Made by a program: the position numbers and the translations under genes. This document shows positions 11,600-54,603 of a DNA stretch of 64,000 bases, in pieces (position 1 is the first letter of the stretch; each line of letters starts with the position of its first letter). Source of the stretch: Acidobacteriota bacterium (lineage in GTDB: Bacteria; Acidobacteriota; Terriglobia; Acidiferrales; UBA7541); NCBI GenBank assembly GCA_003225315.1, contig QHZD01000023.1, positions 90,347 to 154,346 of the forward strand. Direction: 5' to 3'. The notes beneath the pieces are model-generated. The model was given only the letters and a program-made list of their open reading frames with translations, had not been told where the DNA came from and ran no database searches.

Positions 11600-11772
11600 A
11601 TTCCTTCATCATAGCAAGCTGCCACAACCGGGGCAACTTCTTAGAGTTTTTGTGAACGCGCGAACACGCGAAAACATTGTGAGCGTGCGTCCGCAGGTGT
11701 AAATTCTCTTGTCAACGAGTTGGACGGTATTCTGCTGAAGTCGTGCAGCTATCTGGGGAGCTCCACAGCTTA

Positions 11773-13512: not shown

Positions 13513-13700
13513 TTAGTTCTTTGCTGCAGAGAGGTTCCAGATCTTGTAGACGGCCCGGCGACCTTCGTAGGACACAATGAGGATGTTCGCCAAACCTTCC
13601 CAAAGTGGTTTTGCGCCGCGCTACCGTCCCGCCCGAGGAATCCCTTCATCGGAATGCATCTGTAAGAAAGTTGCGGCGTGATTGCGCGCCGCGGAGTCCT

Positions 13701-16817: not shown

Positions 16818-16860
16818 CGACCCGCGTCCAACAGTCAAAGCTACAAATGAAAGTTGCCAA

Positions 16861-16926
16861 GCTGCCCAAGGCCTCGTATGATAGCGCATGATCGGATAAC
16901 GCCGAAGCAAATCCTCCAAGGTTCGA
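16861..16926 (-). promoter_or_regulatory. Duplicated promoter-like block, copy B
   Basis: Homologous to 3584-3649; minus strand TTCGGC-N17-TATCAT; spaced inverted repeat CCGAAGC-N11-GGTTCGA. Confidence 0.6.
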
Positions 16927-16957
16927 ATCGAAAGTCACCCTCACCCGACGAATCTTC

Positions 16958-25915: not shown

Positions 25916-25949
25916 GGTGACGACGCGATTGAATAACACTGGAGGACTT

Positions 25950-27158: not shown

Positions 27159-27174
27159 CTCCCTTTCAAAAGAA

Positions 27175-27244
27175 TTGACAAAGCAAAGACTTTCTGCCAA
27201 AAAGAAAGCGAAGCAATGGTAACGAAAGCAAAGAAAAGAAAAAG
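27175..27244 (+). promoter_or_regulatory. Candidate AgaR operator array
   Basis: TTGACA 27175-27180; CTTTC 27190; GAAAG 27204 and 27224; ACGAAAGCA-AAGAAAAGAAAAAG with 5-nt periodicity. Confidence 0.5.
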
Positions 27245-29561: not shown

Positions 29562-30785
29562 ATGGAAAGTGCATCCTTGTTGAACCAGGCGGACTGGGAA
29601 CACGGGCTGACAAACGGTCAAGCGCGGGCAGCCGAATTATTTGGCCGGGCGGAAACGGAGCAAAAACGGCTTGGCTATTTCCACACGCTTAAGGAGATCT
29701 GCCAGCAGCCTTGGACGTGGCTGCGAACTTGCGATCGAATGATTGCGTCTCGAGATAGCCTGAAAAAGGATGTGGCGGGAATTCGAAGCCTCGCACTTAC
29801 GGGATCCGGAAGTTCAGAGTACGCTGCCGAATGCGTGCGGCTCCCTCTTCAAAATGAGCTTGGGATCCACACAGAATCGATCAGCGGCGGATCATTGCTG
29901 ATGTATGGCGGAAAAGCCTTGCCTCTGGGAAGGCCTGGTTTGCTCGTTTCTTTGGCTAGATCCGGTGACAGTCCCGAGAGTAGCGGGGCCTTGGAATTGC
30001 TACTGGACACAGAGCCTGAGTACCGGCACGTTGTGGTGACGTGCAACGAGCAGGGGAGTCTGGCTAGGGCGTGGCGCAACCATGAGAAAGTGCATGTCAC
30101 CACGCTTCCCACCGAAACTCATGATAAGAGCCTGGTGATGACGAGCAGCTTTACGAACCTGCTGCTGGCGGCGCGCTTCATCGGAATGCTGGAAAGACCA
30201 GACGAATACCAGAGAGTGTGCGAGAGATTAAGCCAAATAACAAAGGACCTGATTCGGTCCTATTTCGACATCCTGGCGAAGATTGCCGCATCAGATTTTC
30301 ACCGAGCGATATTTCTCGGCAGCGGGCCGCGTTTCGCGGCGTCGCGCGAAGCGGCGTTGAAGATGCTGGAGCTAACGTCGGGCCGCGTCACGACACTCTG
30401 CGAAACGTACCTTGGATTTCGGCATGGCCCCATGAGCTACGCGCAAGATGACACTCTCATCGTTTGCAATTTATCGTGCGATTCCACGATACGCGCATAT
30501 GAATTGGATTTACTGCGCGAATTGGACCGAAAGAAACTTGGATTGTCCAAAGTCATTGTTGGAGAAAATATTCCGAATTCCGCGGTTAGGGCGGGCGATA
30601 AGGTCATCGAGTGCCGGGGACTGAGTGAACTCGGAGACGAAGAGACGCCGGTCGTGTATGTGATTGTCGCCCAACTTCTGGCCTTTTTTCGCTGCCTTGG
30701 GGAAGGACTTCAGCCGGATTCACCTTCCGAGGGGGGAATTATTAACCGTGTAGTGGAAAAGTTTCCTCTTCACACATCTTCGTGA
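29562..30785 (+). CDS. agaS: Galactosamine-6-phosphate deaminase/isomerase (double SIS)
   Basis: EICQQP; TGSGSSEY; SLARSGDSPES; VMTSSFT; EAALKMLELTSG; LGFRHGP; PDSPS..G.INRVV, all AgaS signature segments. Confidence 0.88.
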   Translation: MESASLLNQADWEHGLTNGQARAAELFGRAETEQKRLGYFHTLKEICQQPWTWLRTCDRMIASRDSLKKDVAGIRSLALTGSGSSEYAAECVRLPLQNELGIHTESISGGSLLMYGGKALPLGRPGLLVSLARSGDSPESSGALELLLDTEPEYRHVVVTCNEQGSLARAWRNHEKVHVTTLPTETHDKSLVMTSSFTNLLLAARFIGMLERPDEYQRVCERLSQITKDLIRSYFDILAKIAASDFHRAIFLGSGPRFAASREAALKMLELTSGRVTTLCETYLGFRHGPMSYAQDDTLIVCNLSCDSTIRAYELDLLRELDRKKLGLSKVIVGENIPNSAVRAGDKVIECRGLSELGDEETPVVYVIVAQLLAFFRCLGEGLQPDSPSEGGIINRVVEKFPLHTSS

Positions 30786-30902
30786 ATTGCATCAGAACGA
30801 AACTCTTTGAGTTGGATGAGCTTGGATGTCGGCATTAAACGTAATCTAGCAAGACTACTTGAAACGCTGCTAGCGAAGGTACGCGCCGCGAGGGCCACGC
30901 TA

Positions 30903-33900
30903 ATGCGATGGACGGTCCTGTTTTTATTCCTAAGTCTTACCGTCGTTCCTATTCGGGCTCAGGTGCGCGTGTGGGAAGGTGTTCTGAACCTGCCAGCATA
31001 CGAAGAGGGGGCGCCAGATCCCAATCCTCCTTTCGACGAGTTTGCGAGTGGCCGATTTAACTACCCCTATACGATGCGGAAGGAAGTCACGGACCGGCGC
31101 GCCGAACACCAATGGCGCGCAATTTATCTTGAAAACGAATATCTGAAATGTTCCGTCTTGCCGGATTTGGGCGGACATATTTATACGTGCATAGACAAAA
31201 TCAGCGGACAGCCGATGTTCTATGCCAACCCTTCCATCAAAAAGGCCAGGATCGGTTATCGCGGAGCCTGGGCTGCTTTCGGAGTCGAGTTTAACTTTCC
31301 TGTTTCCCACAATTGGGTCTCCATGTCGCCTGTGGATTTCGCCTATGCAAGCCACGAGGATGGCAGCGCATCGATCACAGTAGGGAATATCGACAGGGTT
31401 TATGGAATGGAATGGTCGGTCCAACTGACTCTGCCGCCCAGTTCCACCGTCCTCGAACAACACGTTACGCTGAGCAATCGAAGCGATATACGCCATCGTT
31501 TCTATTGGTGGAACAATGCCGCCGTCCAGGTTTGGGACGATTCTCAGATTCAATACCCCATGCGTTTTGCAGCAGCGCATGGATTTGCGGAGGTGCAGAG
31601 GTGGCCAGTCGATCCAAAAGGCAAGGATCTCAGCGTCATTCGTGACCAGACGGATGGACCAGTTTCTCTGTTTGTTCATGGAAGCCGCGAGAACTTCATG
31701 GGTGTATGGCACCCTCGAACAAATACAGGGACCGCACATTTTGCTGACTACGCCGAGCTACGCGCGAAAAAGATCTGGTCCTGGGGTGTCGACGCAGAAG
31801 GTCTTGGTTGGCGTGAAGCACTCTCCGACAACAACAGCGCCTATGTAGAGTTGCAGGCGGGACTCTTCCGAAACCAGGAGACGTATGCATTCCTTGAACC
31901 GCGTCAATCCATTTCATTCACGGAATACTGGATGCCGGTCCGCGATACGAAGGGGATCTCTCGCGCGAATCTCGCTGGCGTGGTTCATTTGGAAAGAAAG
32001 GCCGGCATGCTGGCGGTGTGCCTCAATTCCAACCGGAAGCTGTTGGACGCTACGATCCAGATTCTGGATGGAAACAGCTCCGTGCTCAACGAGAAAGAAA
32101 ATCTTGTACCAGAGCGATTGTGGAAGAGGGACATTCAGATTCCAGACGCCGGCAAAAAGTATACGTTTGAGCTAAGAAACAACGAGGGTGCGCTGCTCTT
32201 GAGGCAGACAGAGGGGAAGTATGACTGGGCGCCTGAATCCGAAATTAAGGTTGGCCCGCAAATTTCGCACAGGATACCGGAAGAGACGCGACGCACCGCG
32301 GGCGATTGGCTTCAGCAGGGCGGAACGGAAGAATTGAACGGCAATCTCCTAGCTGCTTTGCACACCTATCAAAAAGCATTAACGAAGTTCCCCACAGATC
32401 TTGAATTACTGAAGGCTGCAGGACGACTCGACACTAGTCTGATGCGTTTTGAAGAAGCTGTACCTAGACTGGCTGCCGCTCACGCGCGAAGTACTACCGA
32501 TGCCGAGACTTCCTATTATCTTGGAATCGCATACCAGGGCGTTGAGAGAGAGAACGACGGGATCGATGCATACGAGGAAGCTATGCGCTTACCGTCGTAC
32601 AGGGCGGCCGCTGCCTTGCGCCTTTCCGAACTCTTGGCTCGGCGGGGCGCCCTGAAGGAGGCGAGAGATTTCCTGACGAAAAGCCTCGAATCTGCGCCGG
32701 ATGACCTGAGAGCAGGAGAAGAGCTAGTGGCAGTATCGCGCGCAATGGGAAGTAGGGTGGACGGAGAAAAGATGGCAAGGCAACGGCTCGCGCGCTTCCC
32801 TCTGAGCGATTTTCTCCAGGAAGAACTTGGAAAGCCGAATATTTTGCATCTCGCTGCCGATCCTTATCGAGTCCTAAATATTGCATCGGAATACGCGCGG
32901 TTGGGACTATACCGCCGAGCGGTGGAGGTCCTCTCACGGGAGTATCCGTCTCCCGAGGCGGACCAGAGCGAACCCGGTGCGGTTGCCCCCCAGAAGAACC
33001 CTCTGGTGGTCTACTTTCGCGGATACTGCCGTGAGAAACTCGGTGAGTCTGGTGCAAGTGACTATTTGCAAGCTTCTCAACTTTCGACTGTAGCTGTATT
33101 TCCGAACACCATCGAAGACCAGCAGGCGCTCAAAGCTGCGATCCGCGCGAATGAAAAGGATGCAACCGCTCATTACCTGCTGGGGACGTGGTATTTTGCG
33201 CGAGAAAAAACGGAAGAGGCCATTTTGGAATGGCAACAGGCGCGAAAGCTCGATCCCCAAATACCGGTGCTGGAAGCCAGTCTCGGATTAGCACTGCTGC
33301 ACATGAAGAGGGATTTCGCGGGCGCCATGAATGTATTCGCGGAAGGAATAAGAAATGACCCATCGAACGCCGTGAACTATTCCGGTACTGTTGCGGCGAT
33401 GGCCGTACTGGAGAAATCTGCAGCGGAACGAGCGAAAGCACTTGAGCTTTATCCTGACCTGAGCCACATGCCTATTAGTTTGGTCTATGAATTGGCTTTG
33501 AATCGTGCAGAAGAAGGGAATTATGAGGGCGCGATTGATTTGTTCCAGAATCGCTTCTTTGGCAGCGAAGAAGGGGGAACGGACGTTCGCCACGTGTGGG
33601 TGGAAGTAAAACTGCAGCAAGCCATCGGGTTGGCTCGAACCGGCCACTGCGAAGAAGCCCTAGTCGCGGCGAAAGCGCTTGGTTCCCCGGTTCCAAGCCT
33701 TTCGTTCACGCAAGATGGACTAGAACCATTGTTAGATTCCGCCAGAACAAATTACCTGCTCGGGGAAGCCTATTCTGCTTGCGGTCAAAAAGAAGAGGCA
33801 CAGCGAAGGTACCGGCTTTCGGCCCAAGGGACTGACTCTTCGGATGTCGTATGGGAGTGGGCCGCAGCCAAGAAGCTAAGCGGCTATGATGCAAACCTAT

Positions 33901-34118
33901 GGCGAGAGCATCTCACCTCAGCCCTGTCACGAGCGGAGTTCAACGCACAAAACAGCGCGTACCAGGGTTGGTGGGTCTATTCCGCCGGGGTCTTGCAGAT
34001 GGCCCTTGGGCACGAAGCTCAAGGCAAGGCGTCCCTTCGCGAATCCTTGCTCTTGCCCGACAGCCGAATGTCTTACCACTTCAGCCGACTAGCAATGGAG
34101 GGTGCTACACCTCAATAA
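30903..34118 (+). CDS. DUF5107 domain + TPR protein
   Basis: YPY...LENEYLK.SVLPDLGGHI; IGYRGAWAAFGVEFNFP; RFYWWNNAAV; KKIWSWG; YVELQAG; C-terminal TPRs. ATG 30903 gives a signal-like N-terminus (ORF track opens at 30807). Stop overlaps the agaR stop region. Confidence 0.8.
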   Translation: MRWTVLFLFLSLTVVPIRAQVRVWEGVLNLPAYEEGAPDPNPPFDEFASGRFNYPYTMRKEVTDRRAEHQWRAIYLENEYLKCSVLPDLGGHIYTCIDKISGQPMFYANPSIKKARIGYRGAWAAFGVEFNFPVSHNWVSMSPVDFAYASHEDGSASITVGNIDRVYGMEWSVQLTLPPSSTVLEQHVTLSNRSDIRHRFYWWNNAAVQVWDDSQIQYPMRFAAAHGFAEVQRWPVDPKGKDLSVIRDQTDGPVSLFVHGSRENFMGVWHPRTNTGTAHFADYAELRAKKIWSWGVDAEGLGWREALSDNNSAYVELQAGLFRNQETYAFLEPRQSISFTEYWMPVRDTKGISRANLAGVVHLERKAGMLAVCLNSNRKLLDATIQILDGNSSVLNEKENLVPERLWKRDIQIPDAGKKYTFELRNNEGALLLRQTEGKYDWAPESEIKVGPQISHRIPEETRRTAGDWLQQGGTEELNGNLLAALHTYQKALTKFPTDLELLKAAGRLDTSLMRFEEAVPRLAAAHARSTTDAETSYYLGIAYQGVERENDGIDAYEEAMRLPSYRAAAALRLSELLARRGALKEARDFLTKSLESAPDDLRAGEELVAVSRAMGSRVDGEKMARQRLARFPLSDFLQEELGKPNILHLAADPYRVLNIASEYARLGLYRRAVEVLSREYPSPEADQSEPGAVAPQKNPLVVYFRGYCREKLGESGASDYLQASQLSTVAVFPNTIEDQQALKAAIRANEKDATAHYLLGTWYFAREKTEEAILEWQQARKLDPQIPVLEASLGLALLHMKRDFAGAMNVFAEGIRNDPSNAVNYSGTVAAMAVLEKSAAERAKALELYPDLSHMPISLVYELALNRAEEGNYEGAIDLFQNRFFGSEEGGTDVRHVWVEVKLQQAIGLARTGHCEEALVAAKALGSPVPSLSFTQDGLEPLLDSARTNYLLGEAYSACGQKEEAQRRYRLSAQGTDSSDVVWEWAAAKKLSGYDANLWREHLTSALSRAEFNAQNSAYQGWWVYSAGVLQMALGHEAQGKASLRESLLLPDSRMSYHFSRLAMEGATPQ

Positions 34119-34890
34119 CTTCTATGCCCTTCTTACGAAGGGCCCCAGTGAAATCCTGCGTGGCACGGTTATCCGTAATCAGGCGACGGATTCTGTCAAA
34201 GGGGCCGATCTTTGAAACGCTCCTCCGACCGAGTTTGCTGAAATCCGTGACAACATTGACCTCCTTGGCGGAGCGGATCATCACGTTGTTGAGTTGTGCT
34301 TCGAGCACGTCCGGAGTCGAAGGGCCGTTCTCGAGATCGAAACCATCGACCGCTAGGAAAAGACGGTCAGCGTGGAACTCGTTCATCATGGCTTCTGCCT
34401 GAGGTCCGACGAAGGAGCAAGCAACCGGCCGCAGCAGCCCACCGATCATTATTAAGGAAATTCCGGGAGCGTCCGCAAGCTCAACCGCAATGTTCAAGGC
34501 ATTCGTGATGACCGTAAGCGACTGAACTTTCACCCTTTTCAAGTGTCGGGCGACCTCTGCCGTAGTCGTTCCTGAATCAAGGATGATGGTTTCGCCCGGC
34601 TGCACTAACTCGGCCGCGGCTCTTCCGATCCTAATTTTTTCATCCCGGTGAAGAGTTTCTTTGGTACGGAGCGGGTAATCCTGTGTGGCTTCCAGGCGCC
34701 TTACTGCGCCGCCGTGAGAGCGCACCACTGCGCCGATAGAAGCGAGAGAGTCGAGGTCGTTGCGGACCGTGACGGCAGATATTGAGAATCGCTTAACCAT
34801 ATCCGCGACAGTTACTTGGCCCTCTTGGTCGACGAGGTCCAGCACACTCCGGCGCCGCTGTTCTGTTAGCAGACGAGGTTTGGGGGTCAT
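34105..34890 (-). CDS. agaR: DeoR-family transcriptional repressor, AgaR-like
   Basis: EQRRRSVL...SAVTVRNDL...RSHGGA HTH; IILDSGTTT; VITNALNIA; DRLFLAVDG; located beside agaS and lacD. Confidence 0.8.
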   Translation of the reverse strand: MTPKPRLLTEQRRRSVLDLVDQEGQVTVADMVKRFSISAVTVRNDLDSLASIGAVVRSHGGAVRRLEATQDYPLRTKETLHRDEKIRIGRAAAELVQPGETIILDSGTTTAEVARHLKRVKVQSLTVITNALNIAVELADAPGISLIMIGGLLRPVACSFVGPQAEAMMNEFHADRLFLAVDGFDLENGPSTPDVLEAQLNNVMIRSAKEVNVVTDFSKLGRRSVSKIGPFDRIRRLITDNRATQDFTGALRKKGIEVIEV

Positions 34891-34910
34891 GCACTGTTTC
34901 CGTATGGGAG

Positions 34911-35040
34911 AGTATAGGGCGTCACTTCAACTCGGGTCAAATGACGAAAGCATAGCGCAGGCGAATGCTTTCGTATTCTTTCTCTTTGTGTCGTTCATGC
35001 TTTGTTTGTTGTTGCGTTTGCTTTTCTACTATGGTACATC
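34911..35040. promoter_or_regulatory. Divergent promoters with AgaR-type operator
   Basis: Minus strand: TTGACC (34940-34935)-N18-TATACT (34916-34911). Plus strand: TTGCGT (35012-35017)-N17-TACATC with extended TGn. Perfect inverted repeat ACGAAAGCAT-N11-ATGCTTTCGT (34944-34974) and CTTTC-N5-CTTTC (34968-34982). Confidence 0.7.
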
Positions 35041-35072
35041 GTTCCTCTGGATTATTTTGGGGGAGGTTCGCC

Positions 35073-38000
35073 TTGAAGTACAGAGTCACGTTTGTCTGTG
35101 TTATTTGCTTGGCACTTCTATTCTGTGTGTCCGCAGCAGTATTCGGCCAGGGAACGGATCTGGGCACGATTCGAGGAACGGTGACAGACTCCACAGGGGC
35201 TGTCATTCCAAGCGCCTCGGTGACGATTACCGACGCCCTTACCAACACCGCACGGGAAACAAAAACGAATGCTCAGGGCAATTACGAAATGTTCGGGCTG
35301 AAACCCGGCACGTATAGAGTGACAATCACAGCCCCTGGAATGAACAAGAGAGAAACCACGGACATTGTCTTGAACGGCAGCGACACGGTGAGCGTCGATG
35401 CCGTGCTCAAGGTGTCTGCGGCGCAGGAAAGCGTGGTCGTTACGATGGAAGCGCCAGCCATCAATACGGAAAACCAAACCATTAGCACCGCAATTTCTAA
35501 CCAGGAAATTATTGAGCTTCCCCGCGACAGTCGCGACGTGTATTCATTCCTTTACTTGAACCCTAACATCACGCAGGGCGTTAGTGATGGCGAATTCAAG
35601 TTCCTGGGTTTCCAGAGTTACGGGGCCAATTTTACAATCGACGGCCAGCGCTCCACCAACACGATTTTCGGTTCGCCCACCACCAGTGAGCCTTCGCTGG
35701 AGGCCGTCGGCGAACTCAATGTTCTCTCCACTGATTTCAGCGCTGAATACGCTGGAATTGGCAATATTCGCATCACCACCAAGCGAGGCCAATCGCAGTT
35801 TCACGGCTCGGCTTTTTACAACAACAAGAATTCGGCCCTGGCGGCTTTGCAGATACAAGACAAACAGGGCATTGCGGATTTTGTGCCGACCCCAGGCGTC
35901 AGCAAATATCCCACTCCGTATTTCAATCTCAACGATATTGGTGGATCCCTGGGAGGACCGATTCTCGGCATCAAGAAGACCTGGTTCTTTGTGGCCTATG
36001 AACGGAACTACTCGAGGGCCTCTGTACCCATTTCGGACCAAAGGTTGCCGCATCCAGCATTTTGGGTCGGCGACTTCTCGCCGGCCATAAATCCTGCCGC
36101 AGCCAATCCCGCAAAGCTCCTCCCGGACGTGCCTGCCGGCGTAACTCTGACGCCTGCTGAAGTATTGGCAGACACCTATCTGGGCTTGGGGCAGAAGTTT
36201 GTGACCATACCTTCGCGCCTGTTGGACCCCAATGTGCAACAGCTCATTAGTACTTACTTTCCCAAGATAAGCCCATTGGTGCCGATCAATTTAGCGAACG
36301 GCCGGATTGCGAACCTATTTCAGACGCTGCTTCCGGGCAGTTCAACTCGTGATCTGGGAACACTCCGGGTGGATCACGATTTCACAGACAAAGATCACGT
36401 TTATGGAGTTTACAACGTCTCCGGTTTCGTCGGTGCCACGTCGCCGGTCAGGAACCCCTTCACAGGACTCGGCCTGGTTCAGAACGACCGCCGAAATAAT
36501 ACGGTTTCGGGCTCCTATGTGCGCACGATTCACAACAATCTGATTAATGAGGCACGCGGCGGATTCAATCGGGAATACAGCTTTCGACACAGCAACACCA
36601 CTCTGGCGGGATTCCTTTCTAGCATCGGGTTTGATTCAAATGCCATAGATGCGTATGGGGCAGTCGTAGGCCAGGCACAGTTAAGCACGCACGGACACCC
36701 TGTAATCAATTTCGGCTCTACTTACACCACCTTTGACCGAAGCGGCAATCGCACCACTGAACGGCTGTTAAGCCAGTATCTGGCGACTTTTGGAGACACG
36801 CTTACCTGGGTGATCAAAAAACACAACCTGAAAATGGGCGCGGATTTTGTGCGCAACGTGGGACAGGATGGGTTCGCGACTGCCCGTGGGAATCCACGCG
36901 GAACGATGACGTATACCGTCAGTGGGGCGCTAACCAACCCGTTCGCACACTTTCTACTCGGGCTTGCGCCCACTAGAGTCACGTACATCGCGCAGCCCCG
37001 GCCCCCCATGGACGTACACAACTGGGAGCAGGGGTACTTCTTCCAGGACGATTGGAAGGTTACGCCCAGGTTGACTGTCAATCTCGGCGTGCGCTATGAG
37101 CTGGTTTCGCCATTCGTTGACAAGAACGACATCATGCTCAATTTCGATCCGACCTTCGGAAACAATACTGGGCGTTTTATTATTGCCTCTGACAAGACTA
37201 CTCAATTCCTGGATCCCCGGATAGCTACGACTTTGCCAGTGGTCACTGCCGCCCAATCAGGGCTTGGCATCGGTCGAGGTCTGGTACGGACCGACAAGAA
37301 TAATGTTGCGCCCCGCATCGGCGTTGCCCTGGGCCTGGGGGAGAAGTCCGCGGTGCGCGGCGGATACGGGATGTACTTCCCAACTGCGGCTGCTCAGGGG
37401 ATTCGGGACCCGCTTTCAACCAACGCCTTCAATCAGGCACTTACTAAGTCGAATCTGGGCATAAACCCGCAGCAGCTCCAGCCTTGGCCGACCCCCCTGA
37501 CCGGAGGCGACGTTAATAACCTGGCTGGCCTTCTCTCATTCAATGCGGTGCCCGTTGGGCTTCACCAGCCTCTCATTCAACAGTACAACGCGACCTTCGA
37601 ACGTGAACTCGGGCTAAAAACTTCCGTACGTTTTTCTTACCTCGGCACCACTGCGCATGGGCTGATTGCGGGCACAGACCTGAACGAACTCAGACCCAGT
37701 GATGTTGGTTGGAACACCACCACAGGCGACGGAGTCACCCCCTGCGATACTGACGCTGGAGACTGCGAACCGACGCCCGCGCAAACTGCAGCGCTTCCCT
37801 ATCCCGCGCTGGGAGACTTCTTGCTAAGTTTTGGAAACTTTGGCCACAGCCAAGCGAACGCCTTCCAGACGCAGCTGGCGCGTCGCTACGGCAGCGGATT
37901 GATGTTTAATGCGTCTTACACCTATCTGGACCAGAAATCTACGGGCTTGGATGTCGGCGAATCCAGCCTTGGCGGTGTGGCTTACAATCCGTTCAATCCT

Positions 38001-38738
38001 GAACAGGATTACGGCCAAGATGGGTGGGTATCTCGCCATCGGTTCGTTCTCTACGGAGTATATGACTTGCCAGTGGGGCGGGGCAGAAAGGTCGGCAGCT
38101 CTCTTTCAAGGTGGGCCGACACTGTGATCGGAGGCTGGCAGACAACTTTTCAGATGTTTGCCAAGAGCGGCACCGGATTCACGCCGTATTGGACTTGCGA
38201 TAATTGTTTCAACAGTGACCATTACATTGGTCCGGGAAATATCGCCACAGGCTCGGTGGATGCTGTCGGGGACTTTGAGGGAGGCTACAGGCCTTTGGTC
38301 GTGGGGAACTACAAGCGCCATGTTGGAGACCAGCTCTACGATCCTGCAGCATTTGGACTTCCCCCGATGGGCGCCGACGTGTTTGATAATCCCCAGGTCG
38401 CCAAACGAAACCTGTTGTGGGGGCCCGGTGCCTGGGGAGTGAATTTTGGTCTGCACAAAGACTTTAGATTCGGCGAGCGAGTCAACGCCACCCTTGGGGC
38501 AGACTTTAACAATGTTTTCAATCACCCGCTGCGAGCGCCGAATCACGATGGCGGAGACACCTTCTCCAACCTCGGCAGCTTCAGCGTCGAGGTAGATCCG
38601 GCCACATTGAAACTGCGGCCCTCAACTGTCGATCCGGTTGTTCCTAATCCGGATTTCGCAAATCCGCGCCAGACTTTCTCGCAGGAGGGCGTGGACAGCA
38701 GGCGTACCGTGCGATTGAGGCTGCGGATCACGTTCTAA
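35073..38738 (+). CDS. Acidobacterial Oar-like TonB-dependent receptor
   Basis: TTG 35073 after GGGGAGG; IRGTVTDSTGAVIPSASV; ELPRDSRD; DFSAEYAGIG...TTKRG; APRIGVA; C-terminal RLRLRITF. Confidence 0.92.
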   Translation: MKYRVTFVCVICLALLFCVSAAVFGQGTDLGTIRGTVTDSTGAVIPSASVTITDALTNTARETKTNAQGNYEMFGLKPGTYRVTITAPGMNKRETTDIVLNGSDTVSVDAVLKVSAAQESVVVTMEAPAINTENQTISTAISNQEIIELPRDSRDVYSFLYLNPNITQGVSDGEFKFLGFQSYGANFTIDGQRSTNTIFGSPTTSEPSLEAVGELNVLSTDFSAEYAGIGNIRITTKRGQSQFHGSAFYNNKNSALAALQIQDKQGIADFVPTPGVSKYPTPYFNLNDIGGSLGGPILGIKKTWFFVAYERNYSRASVPISDQRLPHPAFWVGDFSPAINPAAANPAKLLPDVPAGVTLTPAEVLADTYLGLGQKFVTIPSRLLDPNVQQLISTYFPKISPLVPINLANGRIANLFQTLLPGSSTRDLGTLRVDHDFTDKDHVYGVYNVSGFVGATSPVRNPFTGLGLVQNDRRNNTVSGSYVRTIHNNLINEARGGFNREYSFRHSNTTLAGFLSSIGFDSNAIDAYGAVVGQAQLSTHGHPVINFGSTYTTFDRSGNRTTERLLSQYLATFGDTLTWVIKKHNLKMGADFVRNVGQDGFATARGNPRGTMTYTVSGALTNPFAHFLLGLAPTRVTYIAQPRPPMDVHNWEQGYFFQDDWKVTPRLTVNLGVRYELVSPFVDKNDIMLNFDPTFGNNTGRFIIASDKTTQFLDPRIATTLPVVTAAQSGLGIGRGLVRTDKNNVAPRIGVALGLGEKSAVRGGYGMYFPTAAAQGIRDPLSTNAFNQALTKSNLGINPQQLQPWPTPLTGGDVNNLAGLLSFNAVPVGLHQPLIQQYNATFERELGLKTSVRFSYLGTTAHGLIAGTDLNELRPSDVGWNTTTGDGVTPCDTDAGDCEPTPAQTAALPYPALGDFLLSFGNFGHSQANAFQTQLARRYGSGLMFNASYTYLDQKSTGLDVGESSLGGVAYNPFNPEQDYGQDGWVSRHRFVLYGVYDLPVGRGRKVGSSLSRWADTVIGGWQTTFQMFAKSGTGFTPYWTCDNCFNSDHYIGPGNIATGSVDAVGDFEGGYRPLVVGNYKRHVGDQLYDPAAFGLPPMGADVFDNPQVAKRNLLWGPGAWGVNFGLHKDFRFGERVNATLGADFNNVFNHPLRAPNHDGGDTFSNLGSFSVEVDPATLKLRPSTVDPVVPNPDFANPRQTFSQEGVDSRRTVRLRLRITF

Positions 38739-38769
38739 CTCGCGAGTGCAAATAATTGACAGCGGAAAG

Positions 38770-38799
38770 AGGGGCGGGGCCAGGATTCGCCCCTTTTTT
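38770..38799 (+). terminator. Rho-independent terminator
   Basis: AGGGGCG...CGCCCCT followed by TTTTT, 32 nt after the receptor stop. Confidence 0.75.
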
Positions 38800-38930
38800 A
38801 TCTGGGACTATGCTTGCCGTGCAGATTCTTGGCACTTTGGCATCGTCTAGGTGATGAAATAGGCGATAGAAGATATGCCTGTGGATTCCGCACATTCGAT
38901 TCGTAATCGTCCTTGGAGCGGAGGATTGGA

Positions 38931-39932
38931 GTGAGGCTGTCGCCCGGCAAGCGAAAAAGGCTCGAAGGTGTCTCGGATCCTCGCGGCGTCATTGGCGCTC
39001 TTGCGATTGACCAACGCGACGCGTTGCGCCGTCTTTTCTCCGCCAAATTGAAGATTGAAAAGAGTTCGGTTCCACGAGACCAGCTTGAGGAATTCAAATC
39101 CATTGTCGTTCGCGTGCTCTCCCCGCATGCCAGCGCCGTCCTGCTTGAGCCCGAGTACGGCTTGCAGGCTGCCGGTCAGCGTGCTCCATCCGCAGGCTTG
39201 CTGATGGCTTATGAAGTTAGTGGGTATGATCCTGCCGTTCCTTCCCGCCTTCCTCGGCTTCTTGAGAACTGGTCCGTGCGTAGATTGGTCGATGCGGGCG
39301 CGCAGTGCGTAAAGGCTCTTTTGTACTATGCCTTGTCCGACCCACGTGAAATACAGGAACGCAAACGCGTTTGGGTCGAACGTGTCGGCTCGGAATGCGC
39401 CGGCTGTGACGTGCCCTTCTTCCTGGAAATTGTTCCATACCAGGATGGACTGGACGAAAAAAGTCCTCAATTTGCGCGCCGCAAGCCGGCTATTCTCGTC
39501 AGCGCAATGCAAGAATTCTCAAAACCTCACTATTGCGTGGATGTTTTGAAAGTTGGTGTGCCTGTAACTATGGCCTATGTCGAAGGTTCTTCGGATTCTT
39601 CGGGTGTGTTCGTGCATACACGCGCCGAAGCTCTAGAGCTTTTTCGAAATACTGCGGCGGCAACTGACAAACCGTTCTTGTTTCTCTCTGCGGGAGTTAG
39701 CAATCGCGCGTTCAATGAGGCCCTCGCACTGGCCTCGGAAGCGGGCGTCCATTTTTGTGGAGTGCTCTGCGGACGCGCAACGTGGAAGGATGGTGTAAGC
39801 GTGTTCGTCCGCGGAGGAGCGGATGCGCTTCGGGAATGGCTAGAGACCCAGGGCGCGCAAAACATGCGAAGTATCAACGAAAGCCTGAAAGCTGCCACGT
39901 CTTGGTGGGAAAATTATCCCGCAGATGAATAA
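38931..39932 (+). CDS. lacD: Tagatose-1,6-bisphosphate aldolase (class I)
   Basis: ALAIDQR; LLEPEYG; LLMAYE.SGYD; VKALLYY; ERVGSEC...PFFLE; DVLKV (Schiff-base Lys); FLSAGVS; GVLCGRATW. GTG 38931 after GGAGG. Confidence 0.9.
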   Translation: MRLSPGKRKRLEGVSDPRGVIGALAIDQRDALRRLFSAKLKIEKSSVPRDQLEEFKSIVVRVLSPHASAVLLEPEYGLQAAGQRAPSAGLLMAYEVSGYDPAVPSRLPRLLENWSVRRLVDAGAQCVKALLYYALSDPREIQERKRVWVERVGSECAGCDVPFFLEIVPYQDGLDEKSPQFARRKPAILVSAMQEFSKPHYCVDVLKVGVPVTMAYVEGSSDSSGVFVHTRAEALELFRNTAAATDKPFLFLSAGVSNRAFNEALALASEAGVHFCGVLCGRATWKDGVSVFVRGGADALREWLETQGAQNMRSINESLKAATSWWENYPADE

Positions 39933-40911
39933 TCCAGCTGCCCAACCCAATCAACGCGCAGTCGCATTTTTTTGCGTGAGCTTGAATCCCGCGATCGACA
40001 CGCGACTGACAGTGAAGGGATTAATTCCAGGCCGAGTCAATCGCGCCGTGGAAGTTTGTCGAACCCCGGGAGGCAAGGCTGCTCACGTTGCCATGGCACT
40101 CAAGGGCTTGGGAGCGACTCCGACCTGGATTGGTTTCTCCGGCGGTGCCACAGGCGGCGAGTTGGTTGCTGGGCTGGGCCTCTTGGAGATAGCAACTATG
40201 CCGGTGTCCACTGGCGAAGCATCTCGCGTCAATCTGGAAATCTTGGACACAGAGGGAGGAGTCACTGAAGTGCTTGAGCCGGGAGGAACAATTACTCCGT
40301 CCGAATGGTCAGAATTTCAGCAAGTTTGTGCCAGCGCCTTTCAAATTGCAGTCAGCAAGAAAATCGTGCTGATCTCTGGAAGCCTGCCTCCCGGCGTTCC
40401 AACCGAGGCTTACGCCGCAATCGCCAGCTCAGCCCGATCAGCGGACTGTCTGGCGTTTGTCGATTCCAGTGGCTTACCACTCTCTAAAGCGTTGGCCGCC
40501 GGACCAGACCTGGTCAAGATTAATCGGGAGGAAGCGGAGTTTGTCACTGAGGTTGCCATACGGGATCCTATTTCCGCGGCGCAAGCCGCGCGCAGGCTGC
40601 TTGACCTGGGTGCGAACTCCGCCGCTGTCAGCCTCGGCGATCGCGGCATTGTCGGTATTCGAAAACCTGGGCAGCTGGCAATTCACGCCTGGACCGCTCC
40701 CGTGCACGGAAAATCCACCGTCGGCTGTGGTGATTCCGCGCTGGCGGGATTAGCCTTTGCTGCAGCAACTGATCTTTCATTCGAACAAAGCCTGGCACTC
40801 GCCGTTGCTTGCGCAGCGTCGAATTGCCTGGCCGCGCTCCCCGGCCGCATCGTGCGGGGGGATGTTTCGCGCTTTGAGCAAAGCGTTCACATGGAACGGT
40901 TGCAAGTCTAA
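39925..40911 (+). CDS. 1-phosphofructokinase-family hexose kinase (LacC/tagatose-6-phosphate kinase-like)
   Basis: VSLNPAID; PGGKAAHVA; ISGSLPPGV; FVDSSG; VKINREE; STVGCGDSALAG; overlaps the lacD stop. Confidence 0.85.
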   Translation: MNNPAAQPNQRAVAFFCVSLNPAIDTRLTVKGLIPGRVNRAVEVCRTPGGKAAHVAMALKGLGATPTWIGFSGGATGGELVAGLGLLEIATMPVSTGEASRVNLEILDTEGGVTEVLEPGGTITPSEWSEFQQVCASAFQIAVSKKIVLISGSLPPGVPTEAYAAIASSARSADCLAFVDSSGLPLSKALAAGPDLVKINREEAEFVTEVAIRDPISAAQAARRLLDLGANSAAVSLGDRGIVGIRKPGQLAIHAWTAPVHGKSTVGCGDSALAGLAFAAATDLSFEQSLALAVACAASNCLAALPGRIVRGDVSRFEQSVHMERLQV

Positions 40912-40923
40912 GGAGACAGGTCG

Positions 40924-41859
40924 GTGAAGCGTTTTGATATCAGCGTTCTTGGTGAACTGAACTGCGATTTGATCCTCTACGGTCTTCCCCCAGGGCTTGA
41001 ACCCGAGAGAGAGCACTTGGCCAGTGATTTTGCGCTGACGCTCGGCAGCTCCTCTGCAATTTTCGCCCACAATATTTCTCTTCTCGGTAGCCGTGTTGGC
41101 TTCACTTCCTGCATTGGAGGCGACCCGCTCGGCAAGTTTTGTGTAGAGCGCTTGTCAGAGAGCGGCGTTGACGTTTCGGGCGTGAAACGCCTTCCGAGCA
41201 GGAATACCGGCGTAACTGTGATCCTTCCTATCGCCGAGAAGCGGCATATTCTGACTTATCCGGGCACGACTTTTGATTTGGACCAAACGCATCTTGACTT
41301 GGACTATCTGCGGGACGCGGCGCATTTTCACCTTTCCTCCTTTTTTCTGTTACGCAGGCTCCGTCCCAAACTGCCTGAACTGTTTTTTCAAATGAAGCAG
41401 GGTGGCCTTACCACGTCACTCGATACCAACGATGACCCGGATAATCTTTGGGCCGATGACGTCAAGGCCGTGCTCAAAAGCGTCGATGTTTTTCTGCCGA
41501 ATGAACACGAAGCTTGTAAAGTCGCAGGCACAGGAGACGTTAATACTGCGCTCGATATCTTGTCGCATCTCGTTCCCGTCATTGTCATCAAGTGCGGTGC
41601 GCAAGGCGTGCTCGCCAAACGCGGGAAAGAGCGCTTTCGCGCTGCTTCACTCCCCGTTCAGCCCGTCGATGCTGTTGGGGCAGGAGACAGTTTTAACGCT
41701 GGCTTCCTGCACAAATTCATTCGCAGAGCAGGCCTTCAAGATTGCCTTGAATTCGGCAGCGTGAGTGCCGGCCTCTCTACCACCCGAGCCGGCGGCACGG
41801 AAGCTTTTCGCGATCGCGAGCACCGCGCAGAGTTTCTGCAGCGCCACGTGAGGGCGTAG
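40924..41859 (+). CDS. PfkB-family carbohydrate kinase
   Basis: VLGELNCDL; LGSSSAI; IGGDPLG; SLDTNDD; FLPNEHE; DAVGAGDSFNAGF. Confidence 0.88.
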   Translation: MKRFDISVLGELNCDLILYGLPPGLEPEREHLASDFALTLGSSSAIFAHNISLLGSRVGFTSCIGGDPLGKFCVERLSESGVDVSGVKRLPSRNTGVTVILPIAEKRHILTYPGTTFDLDQTHLDLDYLRDAAHFHLSSFFLLRRLRPKLPELFFQMKQGGLTTSLDTNDDPDNLWADDVKAVLKSVDVFLPNEHEACKVAGTGDVNTALDILSHLVPVIVIKCGAQGVLAKRGKERFRAASLPVQPVDAVGAGDSFNAGFLHKFIRRAGLQDCLEFGSVSAGLSTTRAGGTEAFRDREHRAEFLQRHVRA

Positions 41860-41887
41860 AGACTTGAGCCAGGCGGTTGCAGGCGGT

Positions 41888-43192
41888 TCATATGCGCCGT
41901 ACCAAGCCTTGATCGGTTGCACGCGTATTGCGGACGAGTAGCAGGACCAGGATCATCCCAATAAATGGAATAAGTCCGGCGACGACCACAATCGGGTCGA
42001 AAGTATGAGTGCCCGACGCCTGGCGCGCATCGGAAAAGTGTCCGATCAGTTCGAACGCGATGATGGTACCGATTCCCGCCCCGGTTCCGCTCAGGCCGCT
42101 CACCGTAGCAACGGAATCGCTGGCATAGAGGTCCGTAGGCAGCACGTTTGCGATTGTCGAAAAGGATGCGTAGGAAAACGTGGCGAGCGCGAAAAGCATC
42201 GCAATCAAGTACAGATTTACGGTGAAAATTGTCGGGATAAGAAGCAATACGCCGACGCCGCCAAAGACAACCAGCGCTTTACGCGCAGCGCCGAGCGACC
42301 AGCCACGCCGAATCAAATACCCAGAAACGCCACCGCCAAAAAAATTGCCCAAGTCCGCAGCGAGAAAGGGAACCCAAACAGCCAGAAGGCCGCTCTTGAG
42401 CGAAATCCCTTTCGCGACCAGGTAAATGGGAAACCAATCGGTGACGAAAAACCAAACGGGATCGGTAAGGCCTTTCGAAATGATCGTTCCCCAAGTCTGG
42501 GGCAGCTTCAAAAGGTCGCGCCAACGCAACCGCGGTTTTCTCGGGTTTTGTGCCTCCAGCGTCTCGGCAAGAATCATGTTTCGCTCAGCATCGCTGATAC
42601 GCGGATGATCCTGAGGAAGGTGATACATCCGGCGCCACGCGATCAGCCACAAGAATCCGAGCAGACCCGGAATGACAAACGCAACGCGCCATCCCCAGCG
42701 AAAGTACACCGGCAAAATCAGGAAAGGCGCAACCGCGCCCCCGACGGATGAGCCACTGTCGTAGAACGCCGCCGCCAGTCCGCGCTCGCGTTTAGGAAAC
42801 CATTCCGAAACAGCCTTGCTCGCGCCGGGCCAGTTAGCGGATTCGCCCGCCCCGAGCAGAAAGCGAAACACGGAAAAGCTCGAAAAGCCATTCGCGAGCG
42901 AAGTCATAAGGGAGACGATCGAATACCACGTAACGCTGATGGTCAGTCCGCGCCGCGTGCCGACGCGATCCATGAGCCGCCCGCACACAGTTTGTCCGAG
43001 GGAATAGGCGATGCGGAAGGCGATGGCGATGTTGGCGTAGTCCACATTGGTCCAGTGATAGTCCTGCTTCAAATAAGGTGCAAGAATGGAGAGTGTCTGC
43101 CGGTCGATGTAATTAATTACGGTCGAGGCGAACAGAATTCCGCCGATCCACCAGCGCAAGGAGGGAATAGACCGAGGCTCCGCCGTATTCAT
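41888..43192 (-). CDS. MFS transporter (ExuT/ACS-like)
   Basis: [10 protein letters not shown]; [12 protein letters not shown]; [13 protein letters not shown]; EWFPKRERG; DPVWFF..W.P.YL; 12-TM pattern. Confidence 0.9.
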
Positions 43193-43267: not shown

Positions 43268-44032
43268 TCAAGCGGGCGCAGCAAGCGCAATGAGCGCCCC
43301 GGGACTAAGCAAACTGGCTGATCCCCGGTCTAGATAAACCGTGGCCGCCGAATGTGTCCGCAGAATGGAAGCCGGCGCCATCGGACTGACTTCTCCATCG
43401 AAACACAACTTGACCGCTGGAGCTTTGCGCGCGTCAGGAACGACGCAAATAATCTCCTTTGCTTTCAGGATCTGTCTTATCGACATGGAGATGGCTTGCC
43501 GAGGGACTTCCGAAATACTTGCAAACCAGCCCTCTCCGACTTGCTGGCGCAGGCAAGCGTCATCGAGTTCGACGATGAGGTACGGCTCTTCTGTCTGGAA
43601 ATTCGCCGGAGGATCGTTAAACGCCAGATGCCCGTTCTCTCCGATGCCGACGAAGGCAACATCGACGGGCGCTGATCGCAGAGCTTTGCCAACGCGGCGG
43701 ACAACTTCAGCAGGATCACCGTCGCCGTCAAGCAGGTGATACTTCGCAATCCCCACCTTGTGAATCAAACGTACCAGAAGATACTTGCGGAAGCTGGCGG
43801 GATGAGTGATTGGAAGCCCAACGTACTCATCGAGGTGAAACATCTCCACTCGCTGCCAGTCGATGTTTCTCGCATTGGTTAGCGCGTCCAAAAAATCCAA
43901 TTGGGATGTTCCCGTCGCGGCAATGATCCGGGCGTAGCCGCGATCGTGGATCGCACTGCGCACTGCGGCGGACGCTTGCTCGGCAGCGGCCTTGCTGAGA
44001 GAAAGCTCATCTTCAAAAACTCTAACGATCAT
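43268..44032 (-). CDS. nagB: Glucosamine-6-phosphate deaminase family (NagB/AgaI-like)
   Basis: ATGTSQ; FHLDEYVGL...HPASF; [13 protein letters not shown]; VPRQAISM; [11 protein letters not shown] 44032 after GGAGA. Confidence 0.82.
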
Positions 44033-44163
44033 GCTGGTATTCTCTCCGTGGCCGCAGACATACAAGTGCTTTGTACCCGCTTCATAGAAAGAGTTTTATA
44101 TCACAGCCTGTGACTGTAACAATGGATTTGACATTCACGGCAATCGACTGCCGGGCGCAGTTG

Positions 44164-44178
44164 CTTTGCGGTTCTTTG
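44164..44178. promoter_or_regulatory. Possible AgaR-type site CTTTG-N5-CTTTG
   Basis: Direct repeat with 10-bp period in the nagB/oxidoreductase divergent spacer; TTGACA at 44128-44133. Confidence 0.35.
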
Positions 44179-44312
44179 CTGTGCGGTTGTCATTTCCGAT
44201 ACGCCATCTGACATCAATTGAGTACATTCTGTCGGTATTGCAAATGGACGTAGAATCGCGAGTTAGAAAGAGACTGAGCTCTGCGACAACTTCAAATCCC
44301 GAGGAGAAACCG

Positions 44313-50727: not shown

Positions 50728-50771
50728 TCGCTTTTTCTCAGTCTCTCGCCACGAAATCAAGATTCCGAAGC

Positions 50772-51833: not shown

Positions 51834-51898
51834 GAGATGGTCACCACAAGTGATAAAGCAATCAGGAACCTCCATCTTAGCACTTAGACAAAGCCGGT

Positions 51899-54594: not shown

Positions 54595-54603
54595 GCGCCT
54601 CCA

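Follow-up and report, generated by a model that had tools for sequence, protein, structure and literature searches.

A putative PfkB-family galactosamine kinase in a receptor-linked acidobacterial sugar locus

A 64,000-nt stretch of DNA from an Acidobacteriota bacterium (assembly GCA_003225315.1, contig QHZD01000023.1, positions 90,347 to 154,346 of the forward strand; hereafter the window) contains a locus that probably serves the receptor-linked catabolism of galactosamine (GalN) from alpha-linked amino-galactans. The second PfkB-family kinase of this locus (40924-41859, here named PfkB2) is its likely ATP-dependent galactosamine (amino-sugar) 6-kinase, a prediction that is well supported by gene context and comparative genomics. 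A domain scan of the window for phosphotransferase system (PTS), ROK, class II aldolase and deacetylase proteins covered open reading frames (ORFs) of at least 200 aa; because no PTS was found among these, a soluble kinase must phosphorylate the sugar. Candidate sources of the amino-galactan include fungal galactosaminogalactan, bacterial Pel-like polymers and other galactosamine-rich necromass.

In the proposed pathway, oligosaccharides would cross the outer membrane through a TonB-dependent receptor, as the family and position of the receptor suggest, and would be trimmed in the periplasm by a GH36-like glycosidase, a BNR propeller protein, a DUF5107 protein and an Amidohydro_2 protein, the last of which may also strip N-acetyl groups there. 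Free galactosamine would then be carried across the inner membrane by a transporter for which the locus offers no secure candidate. In the cytoplasm, PfkB2 and ATP would phosphorylate it at O6, a step to which both the gene context and an Arg-to-Asp change in the kinase point. AgaS, possibly together with a NagB-like enzyme, would convert galactosamine-6-phosphate to tagatose-6-phosphate and ammonium; here the enzyme family is evident and the substrate is predicted. A 1-PFK-family kinase would form tagatose-1,6-bisphosphate, which a class I aldolase of the LacD family would split into dihydroxyacetone phosphate and glyceraldehyde 3-phosphate. Finally, an AgaR-type DeoR repressor may control the receptor operon through a conserved CGAAAG/CTTTCG candidate operator.

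Organization of the locus

The region from 25.9 to 48.2 kb is arranged as six apparent transcription units. On the forward strand, the Amidohydro_2, BNR propeller, AgaS and DUF5107-TPR genes follow one another with intergenic gaps of 86, 37 and 21 nt. The DeoR/AgaR gene lies divergently on the reverse strand and is followed, on the forward strand, by the receptor gene, a hairpin and the LacD, 1-PFK and PfkB2 genes; these last three form one operon, since the LacD and 1-PFK genes overlap by 8 nt and only 12 nt separate the 1-PFK and PfkB2 genes. Convergent with this unit are two codirectional reverse-strand genes, encoding a major facilitator superfamily (MFS) protein and a NagB-like protein, and beyond them stand a forward-strand GFO/IDH/MocA gene and the reverse-strand GH36-like gene. 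All of the genes named in the preliminary description of this DNA (agaS, agaR, lacD, the 1-PFK gene, the second PfkB gene and the MFS gene) are real ORFs at the coordinates below, and its remark that the window lacks PTS, ROK and class II aldolase domains holds for the scanned ORFs. It had overlooked the NagB/AgaI-family gene, the Amidohydro_2 and BNR genes upstream of agaS, the GH36-like glycosidase gene and a third PfkB gene.

25917-27158, + strand: secreted metal hydrolase of the Amidohydro_2 family (PF04909, Pfam 6.9e-22), first gene of the apparent Amidohydro_2-BNR-AgaS-DUF5107 operon
27245-29524, + strand: secreted, glycosylhydrolase-like beta-propeller protein of the BNR/sortilin type (Pfam Sortilin-Vps10/BNR; signal peptide), 37 nt upstream of agaS
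29562-30785, + strand: double-SIS protein of the AgaS family (TIGR02815, PDB relatives)
30807-34118, + strand: DUF5107 and TPR protein with an N-terminal signal or anchor (PF17128, 1.9e-67)
34105-34890, - strand: DeoR-family repressor of the AgaR type (NF040755)
34945-34973: candidate AgaR operator, inverted repeat CGAAAG-N17-CTTTCG
34965-38738, + strand: TonB-dependent receptor of the acidobacterial type with an N-terminal CarboxypepD_reg domain (PF25183, 2.6e-148; PF13620)
38776-38793: terminator-like hairpin downstream of the receptor gene
38913-39932, + strand: predicted class I tagatose-1,6-bisphosphate aldolase of the LacD type (PRK12858)
39925-40911, + strand: hexose-phosphate kinase of the 1-PFK/LacC family (TIGR03168)
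40924-41859, + strand: PfkB2 kinase (PF00294, 3.3e-49)
41888-43192, - strand: MFS protein of the anion:cation symporter family, DgoT/ExuT-like (D-galactonate/ExuT; TIGR00893, 6e9n alignment)
43268-44065, - strand: candidate amino-sugar-6-phosphate deaminase of the NagB/AgaI family (PF01182, 2.8e-20)
44166-45647, + strand: GFO/IDH/MocA oxidoreductase, glycoside 3-dehydrogenase-like (Pfam and PDB matches)
45677-48178, - strand: secreted GH36-like (TmGalA-type) glycosidase with a PKD domain (Pfam Melibiase and PKD; PDB 1zy9, 1.6e-32)

Gene neighbourhood of PfkB2 across Acidobacteriota

An alignment of PfkB2, scanned against one genome per species, recovered 80 loci at 54-88% identity (numbered here with the prefix L), nearly all of them in metagenome-assembled genomes (MAGs) of Acidobacteriota; the closest homologues and loci belong to subdivision-2 Acidobacteriota from soil. 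Neighbours were counted both by tblastn of the window proteins against the loci and by clustering of the locus ORFs, hence the ranges given here. Genes for a SIS protein, usually adjacent to and upstream of PfkB2, occur in 55-57 of the 80 loci. A DeoR regulator is encoded in 60-66, a GH36-like lipoprotein of ~770 aa directly after PfkB2 in 52, the TonB-dependent receptor in 46, LacD in 35-38, the 1-PFK protein in 32-34, a secreted protein without a Pfam match in 31, a secreted Amidohydro_2 protein in 30-32, and a GatZ/KbaZ-family protein in 19. Most often the genes run receptor, (unknown), LacD, 1-PFK, DeoR, SIS, PfkB2, with the GH36-like and Amidohydro_2 genes after them on the other strand. 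The preliminary description had offered co-occurrence of the PfkB kinase with agaS in other genomes as a check on its proposal, and the outcome favours it: an SIS gene lies within 10 kb of PfkB2 in 57 of the 80 loci, far beyond chance.

The SIS partner is, in most loci, not an orthologue of the window AgaS; it is 23-30% identical to that protein and scores best on GlmD/GlmS isomerase-domain models. Locus L050 carries an AgaS-type protein that is 50% identical to the window AgaS, and the closest relatives, L001, L002, L004 and L088, pair PfkB2 with a NagB-type deaminase. PfkB2 therefore keeps company with three kinds of amino-sugar-6-phosphate deaminase, namely the AgaS, GlmD/GlmS-C and NagB types.

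The downstream enzymes are more variable still. Combinations were counted in the 50 loci with full 10-kb flanks: LacD accompanies the 1-PFK kinase in 17 and GatZ (without 1-PFK) in six, GatZ stands alone in 10, and none of these enzymes is within reach in 16. Because different enzyme families acting on tagatose-6-phosphate or tagatose-1,6-bisphosphate swap beside a constant SIS-PfkB2 core, the common intermediate would be tagatose-6-phosphate. This interchangeability is the strongest argument that the core makes tagatose-6-phosphate, a conclusion that it strongly supports. A GlmS-type SIS enzyme that makes tagatose-6-phosphate needs galactosamine-6-phosphate, and the SIS substrate would thus be galactosamine-6-phosphate.

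GatZ/KbaZ genes take the position of the 1-PFK gene beside a class I LacD gene in L016, L020, L021, L025, L029, L030 and L042, and occur without kinase or aldolase genes in L012, L015, L017, L018, L036, L055 and L060. The GatZ protein scores 539 bits on the agaZ_gatZ model, for which the cut-off is 569. These swaps bear on whether AgaZ and GatZ are tagatose-6-phosphate kinases, epimerases or aldolase subunits.

Sequence signature of the kinase

PfkB2 scores 168.3 bits on PF00294 (gathering score 25.8) and passes no curated NCBIfam family. Its scores lie below the cut-offs for 2-keto-3-deoxygluconate (KDG)/2-keto-3-deoxygalactonate (KDGal) kinase (73 versus 400), fructokinase (66 versus 450), tagatose kinase (NF049991; 86 versus 420) and the fructoselysine kinase FrlD (PRK09813; 66 versus 247). 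The nearest solved structures are Escherichia coli YdjH (3h49), an uncharacterised "ribokinase II", ribokinases and KDG kinase, with E-values of 4.6e-24 to 1.2e-18. Both catalytic motifs, GAGD (252-255) and NxxE (N193-x-x-E196), are invariant in 81 of 81 locus members.

The PfkB fold, GAGD and NxxE are shared with the KDG kinase/fructokinase branch; the difference lies in the D-x-N-x-R motif of that branch, whose substrate-binding Arg is missing from PfkB2 and replaced by a near-invariant Asp. In a HMMER alignment with the KDG kinase of Thermus thermophilus (1v19), S-L-D-T-N-D-D-P of PfkB2 lies over S-L-D-V-N-Y-R, which places Asp171 at the position of Arg167, a residue that we take to contact the substrate carboxylate. 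Of the 81 locus members, 78 retain Asp171; the three exceptions are second, fructokinase-like copies that read N-L-R. It is also found in 124 of 125 full-length diverse representatives (31-56% identity), within the pattern S-L-D-[TP]-[GNQ]-x-D-P...W. We infer that an Arg-to-Asp charge reversal at a substrate-contact position would fit a protonated amine. The subfamily comprises 379 clusters (50% identity, E<=1e-30) among the 1.84 billion cluster representatives searched.

Actinobacterial homologues

A tblastn search of a plasmid and chromid collection returned homologues at 37-40% identity. On a plasmid of Arthrobacter sp. ERGS1:01, one strand carries genes for a DeoR regulator, a 2-hydroxyacid dehydrogenase and an ATP-binding cassette (ABC) transporter (three genes), and the other strand those for a PfkB2-like kinase (NZ_CP012478, 93701-94690), an SIS protein, a hypothetical protein, a 1-PFK kinase and a class II ketose-bisphosphate aldolase. 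In Streptantibioticus, an SIS gene and a class II aldolase gene lie 4-5 kb from the kinase gene. These loci hold the same kinase subfamily despite a different aldolase class, transporter and phylum.

In Embleya and Streptomyces mirabilis, the gene for a secreted GH114 protein is followed by ABC transporter genes and the gene for the PfkB2-like kinase; in Streptantibioticus, a weaker GH114-like match (31% identical) lies upstream of the kinase gene. The gene directly after the kinase encodes a GH4 protein in Embleya, Streptomyces, Streptantibioticus and Nonomuraea. Characterised GH114 members cut polygalactosamine (PMC12054363), and the GH114 genes thus lend independent support to the aminogalactan substrate suggested in the preliminary description.

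The clusters of ABC transporter, PfkB2-like kinase and GH4 genes in Streptomycetaceae and Nonomuraea span positions 3368-10246 in L084, 3521-10252 in L085, 1665-10276 in L083 and 6569-10279 in L086. A GH114 gene (endo-alpha-1,4-polygalactosaminidase family) precedes the cluster in L084 and L085, and the weaker match does so in L083. The streptomycete GH114-kinase-GH4 cluster looks like a polygalactosamine utilisation system, of which no description was found in the literature searched.

A wider proposal, which we consider possible though somewhat short of an even chance, is that the PfkB2 subfamily, with at least 379 clusters in Acidobacteriota and Actinomycetota and its Arg-to-Asp mark, comprises the dedicated galactosamine kinases of PTS-less bacteria, and that its Amidohydro_2 partners are new amino-sugar de-N-acetylases. 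Among the amino sugars of soils, where Acidobacteria are one of the dominant phyla, galactosamine ranks second in abundance, and its consumption by soil bacteria is poorly understood. If the proposal is true, the subfamily supplies the missing first cytoplasmic step by which galactosamine, galactosaminogalactan and Pel-type polymers are turned over in soil, and joins the acidobacterial receptor loci and the streptomycete GH114 clusters in one catabolic route. It would also close an annotation gap, in that thousands of proteins are now labelled just "ribokinase", and provide a marker gene for amino-galactan turnover in metagenomes.

Enzymes predicted to act after the kinase

The AgaS-type protein scores 262 bits on the TIGR02815 agaS_fam model, below the cut-off of 529, although this is still its best-scoring family. 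Its three best PDB matches are all AgaS-family proteins (3odp, 3c3j and 3i0z; 4.5e-58 to 1e-42), and it has two SIS domains as well as readable counterparts of GlmS K485/E488 and H504 (...REAALKMLE... and ...FRHGP...). The gene at 29562-30785 is thus predicted to encode a galactosamine-6-phosphate deaminase/isomerase yielding tagatose-6-phosphate. The NagB-like protein is a second candidate deaminase; it scores 117.6 bits on TIGR00502 (cut-off 236.9) and 89.6 on the AgaI model PRK09762 (cut-off 271), aligns with Bacillus subtilis NagB (2bkv, 2e-27) and keeps the LDEY and 13-residue motifs. All of its PDB matches are glucosamine-6-phosphate deaminases.

The 1-PFK-family kinase passes the subfamily model TIGR03168 (219.7 versus 216.4) and falls short of the lacC equivalog TIGR01231 (88 versus 410); its PDB relatives are FruK, Pfk-2 and LacC structures (1e-32 to 1e-29). 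The product of 39925-40911 is predicted to be a tagatose-6-phosphate kinase, a role taken from gene context. Similarly, LacD passes PRK12858 (385 versus 184) and falls short of the lacD equivalog TIGR01232 (320 versus 432). The earlier suggestion that LacD replaces the class II aldolase agrees with the presence of this class I enzyme and with the lack of a class II domain in the scanned ORFs.

The DeoR repressor passes the AgaR model NF040755 marginally (264.5 versus 260). Its candidate operator, CGAAAG-N17-CTTTCG, is the only such pair in the 64-kb window, and nine of 200 shuffles give one anywhere. A third CTTTC follows 10 bp downstream, so that the element spans to 34988, and the repeat is kept in the DeoR-receptor spacers of L002, L004, L054 and L088 amid diverged flanks. 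The element runs across the first ATG listed for the receptor, whose true start therefore probably lies downstream of 34965. The sequence CGAAAGYA occurs 13 times against 5.5 expected, and four or five GAAAG/CTTTC pentamers lie in the 86-nt gap (27159-27244) before the BNR-agaS genes.

Transport and hydrolysis

The MFS protein had been put forward as the uptake system for GalN and N-acetylgalactosamine (GalNAc), a role that is doubtful. It scores 228 bits on TIGR00893, below the cut-off of 395, and aligns with the D-galactonate:H+ symporter DgoT (6e9n, 9.5e-40), whose residues D46 and R47 (TM1) and E133 (TM4) are kept as D30, R31 and E118; in the anion:cation symporter family these residues serve proton coupling and carboxylate binding. 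Its gene is present in ~9 of the 80 PfkB2 loci, always near a NagB-like gene, with which it is paired in L001, L002, L004, L066 and L088. As judged from its sequence, its substrate is more likely an anionic sugar.

The locus had also been called complete. For GalNAc this fails, as no cytoplasmic deacetylase of the NagA/AgaA type was found in the scanned window ORFs or among the recurrent neighbours; at best, the locus is complete for GalN. The Amidohydro_2 protein carries a twin-arginine (TAT)-like signal (RRSWL) and readable HxH, H, H and D metal ligands, and is possibly a periplasmic de-N-acetylase, or else a lactonase. We know of no de-N-acetylase activity on amino sugars in the Amidohydro_2 family. 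Sequence and profile searches of the PDB gave no solved relative, and the AlphaFold2 model was unusable, with a mean pLDDT of 44 from an alignment of 15 sequences at 85-95% identity.

A shorter Amidohydro_2 form of 283-286 aa, without a signal peptide, directly follows PfkB2 in six loci (L046, 5190-6041; L049, 4829-5665; and, at about 10945-11890, L058, L065, L066 and L075), and a form with a TAT signal does so in L002 (10819-11922) and L005 (2990-3610). The repeated association of Amidohydro_2 with PfkB2 suggests a role for the family in the pathway.

The GH36-like glycosidase is, from its sequence relatives, a candidate alpha-galactosidase or alpha-galactosaminidase; the ~770-aa lipoprotein encoded after PfkB2 in 52 loci is related to it. 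The GFO/IDH/MocA protein was considered as a GH109 alpha-N-acetylgalactosaminidase and rejected, its best PDB matches being DgpA and two glycoside 3-dehydrogenases (8tdf and 8tdh), with GH109 in none of 28 matches; its gene is kept in L002 and L054 and is peripheral to the pathway. The BNR propeller protein scores 124 bits on NF045728 (cut-off 175). The DUF5107-TPR gene is kept only in the closest (subdivision 2) loci and is syntenic in L002, L004, L054 and L088.

Comparison with known galactosamine pathways

The preliminary description did not recognise the system as one already described. This is only partly right, since the gap in the pathway and the idea of a kinase acting with an SIS protein had been put forward before (Hausmann et al., bioRxiv 10.1101/197269; diCenzo et al., 2016). 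Among the acidobacterial MAGs of Hausmann et al. (bioRxiv 10.1101/197269), three had AgaS, three different ones had PfkB and the majority had LacD; neither a GalNAc PTS nor agaK was found, and the authors proposed that the missing step is taken over by unspecific sugar kinases. In Sinorhizobium meliloti, diCenzo et al. (2016; PMC4961836) described the GalN-induced operon smb21216-21221, among whose products are smb21217, a "sugar amine kinase" of COG0524, and smb21218, a "sugar isomerase" of COG2222, and predicted the route from GalN through GalN-6-phosphate to tagatose-6-phosphate. SM_b21217 was later found to be specifically needed for growth on glucosamine (Price & Arkin, bioRxiv 10.1101/2024.04.15.589591). 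Full-text literature searches returned nothing else on a PfkB-family galactosamine kinase.

The S. meliloti operon is the closest conceptual precedent, sharing a ribokinase-family kinase that adjoins a GlmS-like SIS protein. It differs in that smb21217 has Pro where PfkB2 has Asp171 (LDTGWPLD), in its ABC-type uptake and in the location of the tagatose-pathway genes elsewhere on the replicon, and it is backed by induction and fitness data. We located smb21217 and smb21218 on pSymB near 780 kb by their neighbour genes; a Sinorhizobium kinase beside a GH4 gene at 1.389 Mb of pSymB is a different kinase.

With the aga/kba system of E. coli, the window shares the AgaS-type deaminase, a NagB/AgaI-type paralogue, the chemistry from GalN-6-phosphate to triose phosphates and an AgaR-type repressor. 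Unlike E. coli, however, it has a class I LacD in place of class II AgaY/KbaY and a 1-PFK/LacC-type kinase in place of AgaZ, and its locus also includes genes for a TonB-dependent receptor and for secreted hydrolases. The Aga/Gam PTS, the AgaA deacetylase and class II AgaY/KbaY of the E. coli system were not found in the scanned ORFs, and the locus is thus not an E. coli-type aga regulon. The Shewanella-type non-PTS GalNAc pathway comprises the permease AgaP, the kinase AgaK, AgaA-II, AgaS, AgaZ and AgaY, as summarised in a later article (Leyn et al., 2012, via PMC12118421). As far as that summary goes, the logic is the same, in that the work of the PTS upstream of AgaS falls to a transporter in the outer membrane, a permease and a kinase in the cytoplasm; the window differs in that its kinase belongs to the PfkB family, its aldolase is class I, its MFS protein falls in an anion-transporter family and no deacetylase was found in it. 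The LacC/LacD route of Firmicutes, coupled in Lacticaseibacillus casei to the utilisation of GalNAc or GNB/LNB, likewise uses a LacC-like kinase and a class I LacD on tagatose-6-phosphate from a GalN-6-phosphate deaminase, although Firmicutes phosphorylate the sugar during PTS uptake and the window proteins reach only the broader LacC/LacD subfamily models.

Alternative substrates of PfkB2

Several observations weigh against PfkB2 as a galactosamine kinase. What is said of the function of the subfamily derives from gene context and sequence, and the role of Asp171 is read from the KDG kinase alignment and from the structure of that enzyme. The only inner-membrane transporter in the locus keeps the anion-binding Arg of DgoT, and GH4 beside the streptomycete homologues suggests a disaccharide rather than free GalN as substrate. 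In ~16 of the 50 loci with full flanks, only DeoR, PfkB2 and a periplasmic-binding-protein gene are present, with no tagatose genes within 10 kb. In the window, agaS and PfkB2 belong to different operons, agaS being 10 kb upstream, and only relatives at 54-61% identity, whose SIS protein is of another subtype, have the two genes side by side; the agaS-PfkB2 link in the window is carried by the shared locus, synteny in L054 and the candidate AgaR operator. Moreover, SM_b21217 is to be regarded as an analogue rather than an orthologue of PfkB2, with 28% identity and 68 bits, compared with 62 bits for the window's own ribokinase.

Of the other substrates considered, GalNAc is the least improbable, though still unlikely: PfkB2 would phosphorylate GalNAc, and a NagA/AgaA encoded elsewhere or an Amidohydro_2 protein would then make GalN-6-phosphate for AgaS. 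Natural polymers are indeed largely N-acetylated, Amidohydro_2 genes recur by PfkB2 in three forms (secreted, ~400 aa, in 30 loci; short and cytoplasmic in six; with a TAT signal in L002 and L005), and nagA was present in six of seven acidobacterial MAGs of Hausmann et al. (bioRxiv 10.1101/197269). The window Amidohydro_2, however, is secreted and therefore cannot act on a cytoplasmic sugar phosphate, NagA/AgaA of the Amidohydro_1 type is missing from the scanned ORFs and recurrent neighbours, and the invariant extra Asp at the substrate contact would sit more favourably beside a free amine than beside an acetamido group. A further possibility, somewhat less likely than GalNAc, is that PfkB2 phosphorylates an imported GalN-containing di- or oligosaccharide, later cleaved by a phospho-glycosidase, with free GalN not being the physiological substrate. 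GH4 enzymes often need 6-phosphorylated glycosides, and in the four Streptomycetaceae/Nonomuraea loci an oligosaccharide-type ABC transporter precedes the kinase and GH4 directly follows it, with GH114 in three. On the acidobacterial side, no GH4 or other cytoplasmic glycosidase was found in the window or among recurrent neighbours, where the glycosidases have signal peptides or lipoboxes.

Slightly less likely again is that PfkB2 acts on a sugar that is neutral or of the Amadori type, such as D-tagatose, galactose (at O6) or a compound resembling fructosamine or tagatosamine; the SIS protein would then be a simple isomerase or a FrlB/FrlD-like deglycase. Fructoselysine and fructose-asparagine are each known to be handled by a PfkB and SIS pair, the first annotation of AgaS proteins was as tagatose-6-phosphate ketose/aldose isomerases (as PDB titles show), and PfkB2 has the weak similarity given above to the models for tagatose kinase (86 bits) and for fructoselysine kinase (66 bits); these scores, however, fall far short of the respective cut-offs (420 and 247). 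The SIS partners score 114-136 bits on the GlmD/GlmS/AgaS models against 35 on FrlB (the L008 partner reaches 35 on PRK11382, cut-off 430), and a FrlB-type deglycase is disfavoured because its product would be galactose-6-phosphate and the LacAB isomerase is not present. If PfkB2 were a tagatose kinase, the conserved adjacent SIS protein and the NagB-type deaminases would have no role, and the GH114 linkage points to galactosamine. Least probable of all is that MFS, NagB-like protein and PfkB2 serve an anionic amino-sugar acid (galactosaminate or glucosaminate from periplasmic oxidation), PfkB2 being a sugar-acid kinase like KDG kinase. The DgoT anion:H+ residues of the MFS protein would fit, as would the pyrroloquinoline quinone (PQQ) dehydrogenases encoded nearby in the window and L031 together with Amidohydro_2 proteins, whose family has lactonases among its members, and the Amidohydro_3 and N-acylglucosamine 2-epimerase-family genes of L066. 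But PfkB2 has lost the carboxylate-binding Arg of KDG kinase, GlmS-type SIS enzymes need an aldose or ketose phosphate rather than an aldonate, no KDPG/KDPGal (6-phospho-KDG/KDGal) aldolase is present, the conserved partners in most loci are tagatose-6-phosphate enzymes, and PQQ genes are rare among the 80 loci. An oxidative galactosaminate route was rejected for its misfit with the SIS and tagatose-6-phosphate partners.

Other observations

Beside the SIS-PfkB2 genes of L066, positions 126-8672 encode a NagB-like protein, a DUF4832 protein, an ACS-type MFS protein, an N-acylglucosamine 2-epimerase-family protein, a pectate-lyase-like protein and an Amidohydro_3 (D-aminoacylase-like) protein, a set that may be a different amino-sugar toolkit for N-acetylated or acidic amino sugars. 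In L088, genes for a secreted Peptidase_S15 protein, a RidA-like protein and a SelA-like protein with a TAT signal follow the NagB-like gene (13139-17588); elsewhere, only the SelA-like gene recurs, in L044. The SelA-like, RidA and peptidase genes were considered as a DgaE-type glucosaminate route and set aside, as the proteins have signal peptides and the genes are not conserved.

Upstream of the locus, the region 1668-16919 is a cluster encoding FG-GAP/ASPIC(UnbV) proteins (1668-3455, 8122-9996 and 11743-13512), two long TPR proteins (10001-11599 and 13701-16919) and a second acidobacterial TonB-dependent receptor (4230-7967). The carbohydrate-active genes between 16958 and 25758 encode a GH51-like arabinofuranosidase, a glucose/quinate-family PQQ dehydrogenase (19388-21313), a DUF4832 protein, an AXE1-like esterase and a CBM9-like protein; 10 PfkB2 loci encode a protein with a TAT signal that weakly resembles the DUF4832 protein.

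Downstream, a separate ribose/deoxyribose module occupies 48343-52837 on the reverse strand. Its third PfkB protein (51899-52837) is a true ribokinase (TIGR02152, 342 versus 299.65), unrelated to the GalN pathway, and its gene lies beside that of the deoxyribose-phosphate aldolase DeoC (TIGR00126, 165 versus 117), which sits inside the ORF at 50772-52217. This ORF as listed overlaps the ribokinase gene by 318 nt, and the real start of DeoC therefore lies further downstream. The third PfkB and this second aldolase of the DeoC/LacD family had been candidates for pathway enzymes and were discarded as a bona fide ribokinase and DeoC. The module also encodes an 861-aa aldehyde dehydrogenase with an N-terminal extension (48343-50928). 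Further on, the reverse strand at 53857-56106 carries an aquaglyceroporin (MIP) and FGGY kinase pair, typical of GlpF/GlpK glycerol uptake, beside a proline dehydrogenase gene.

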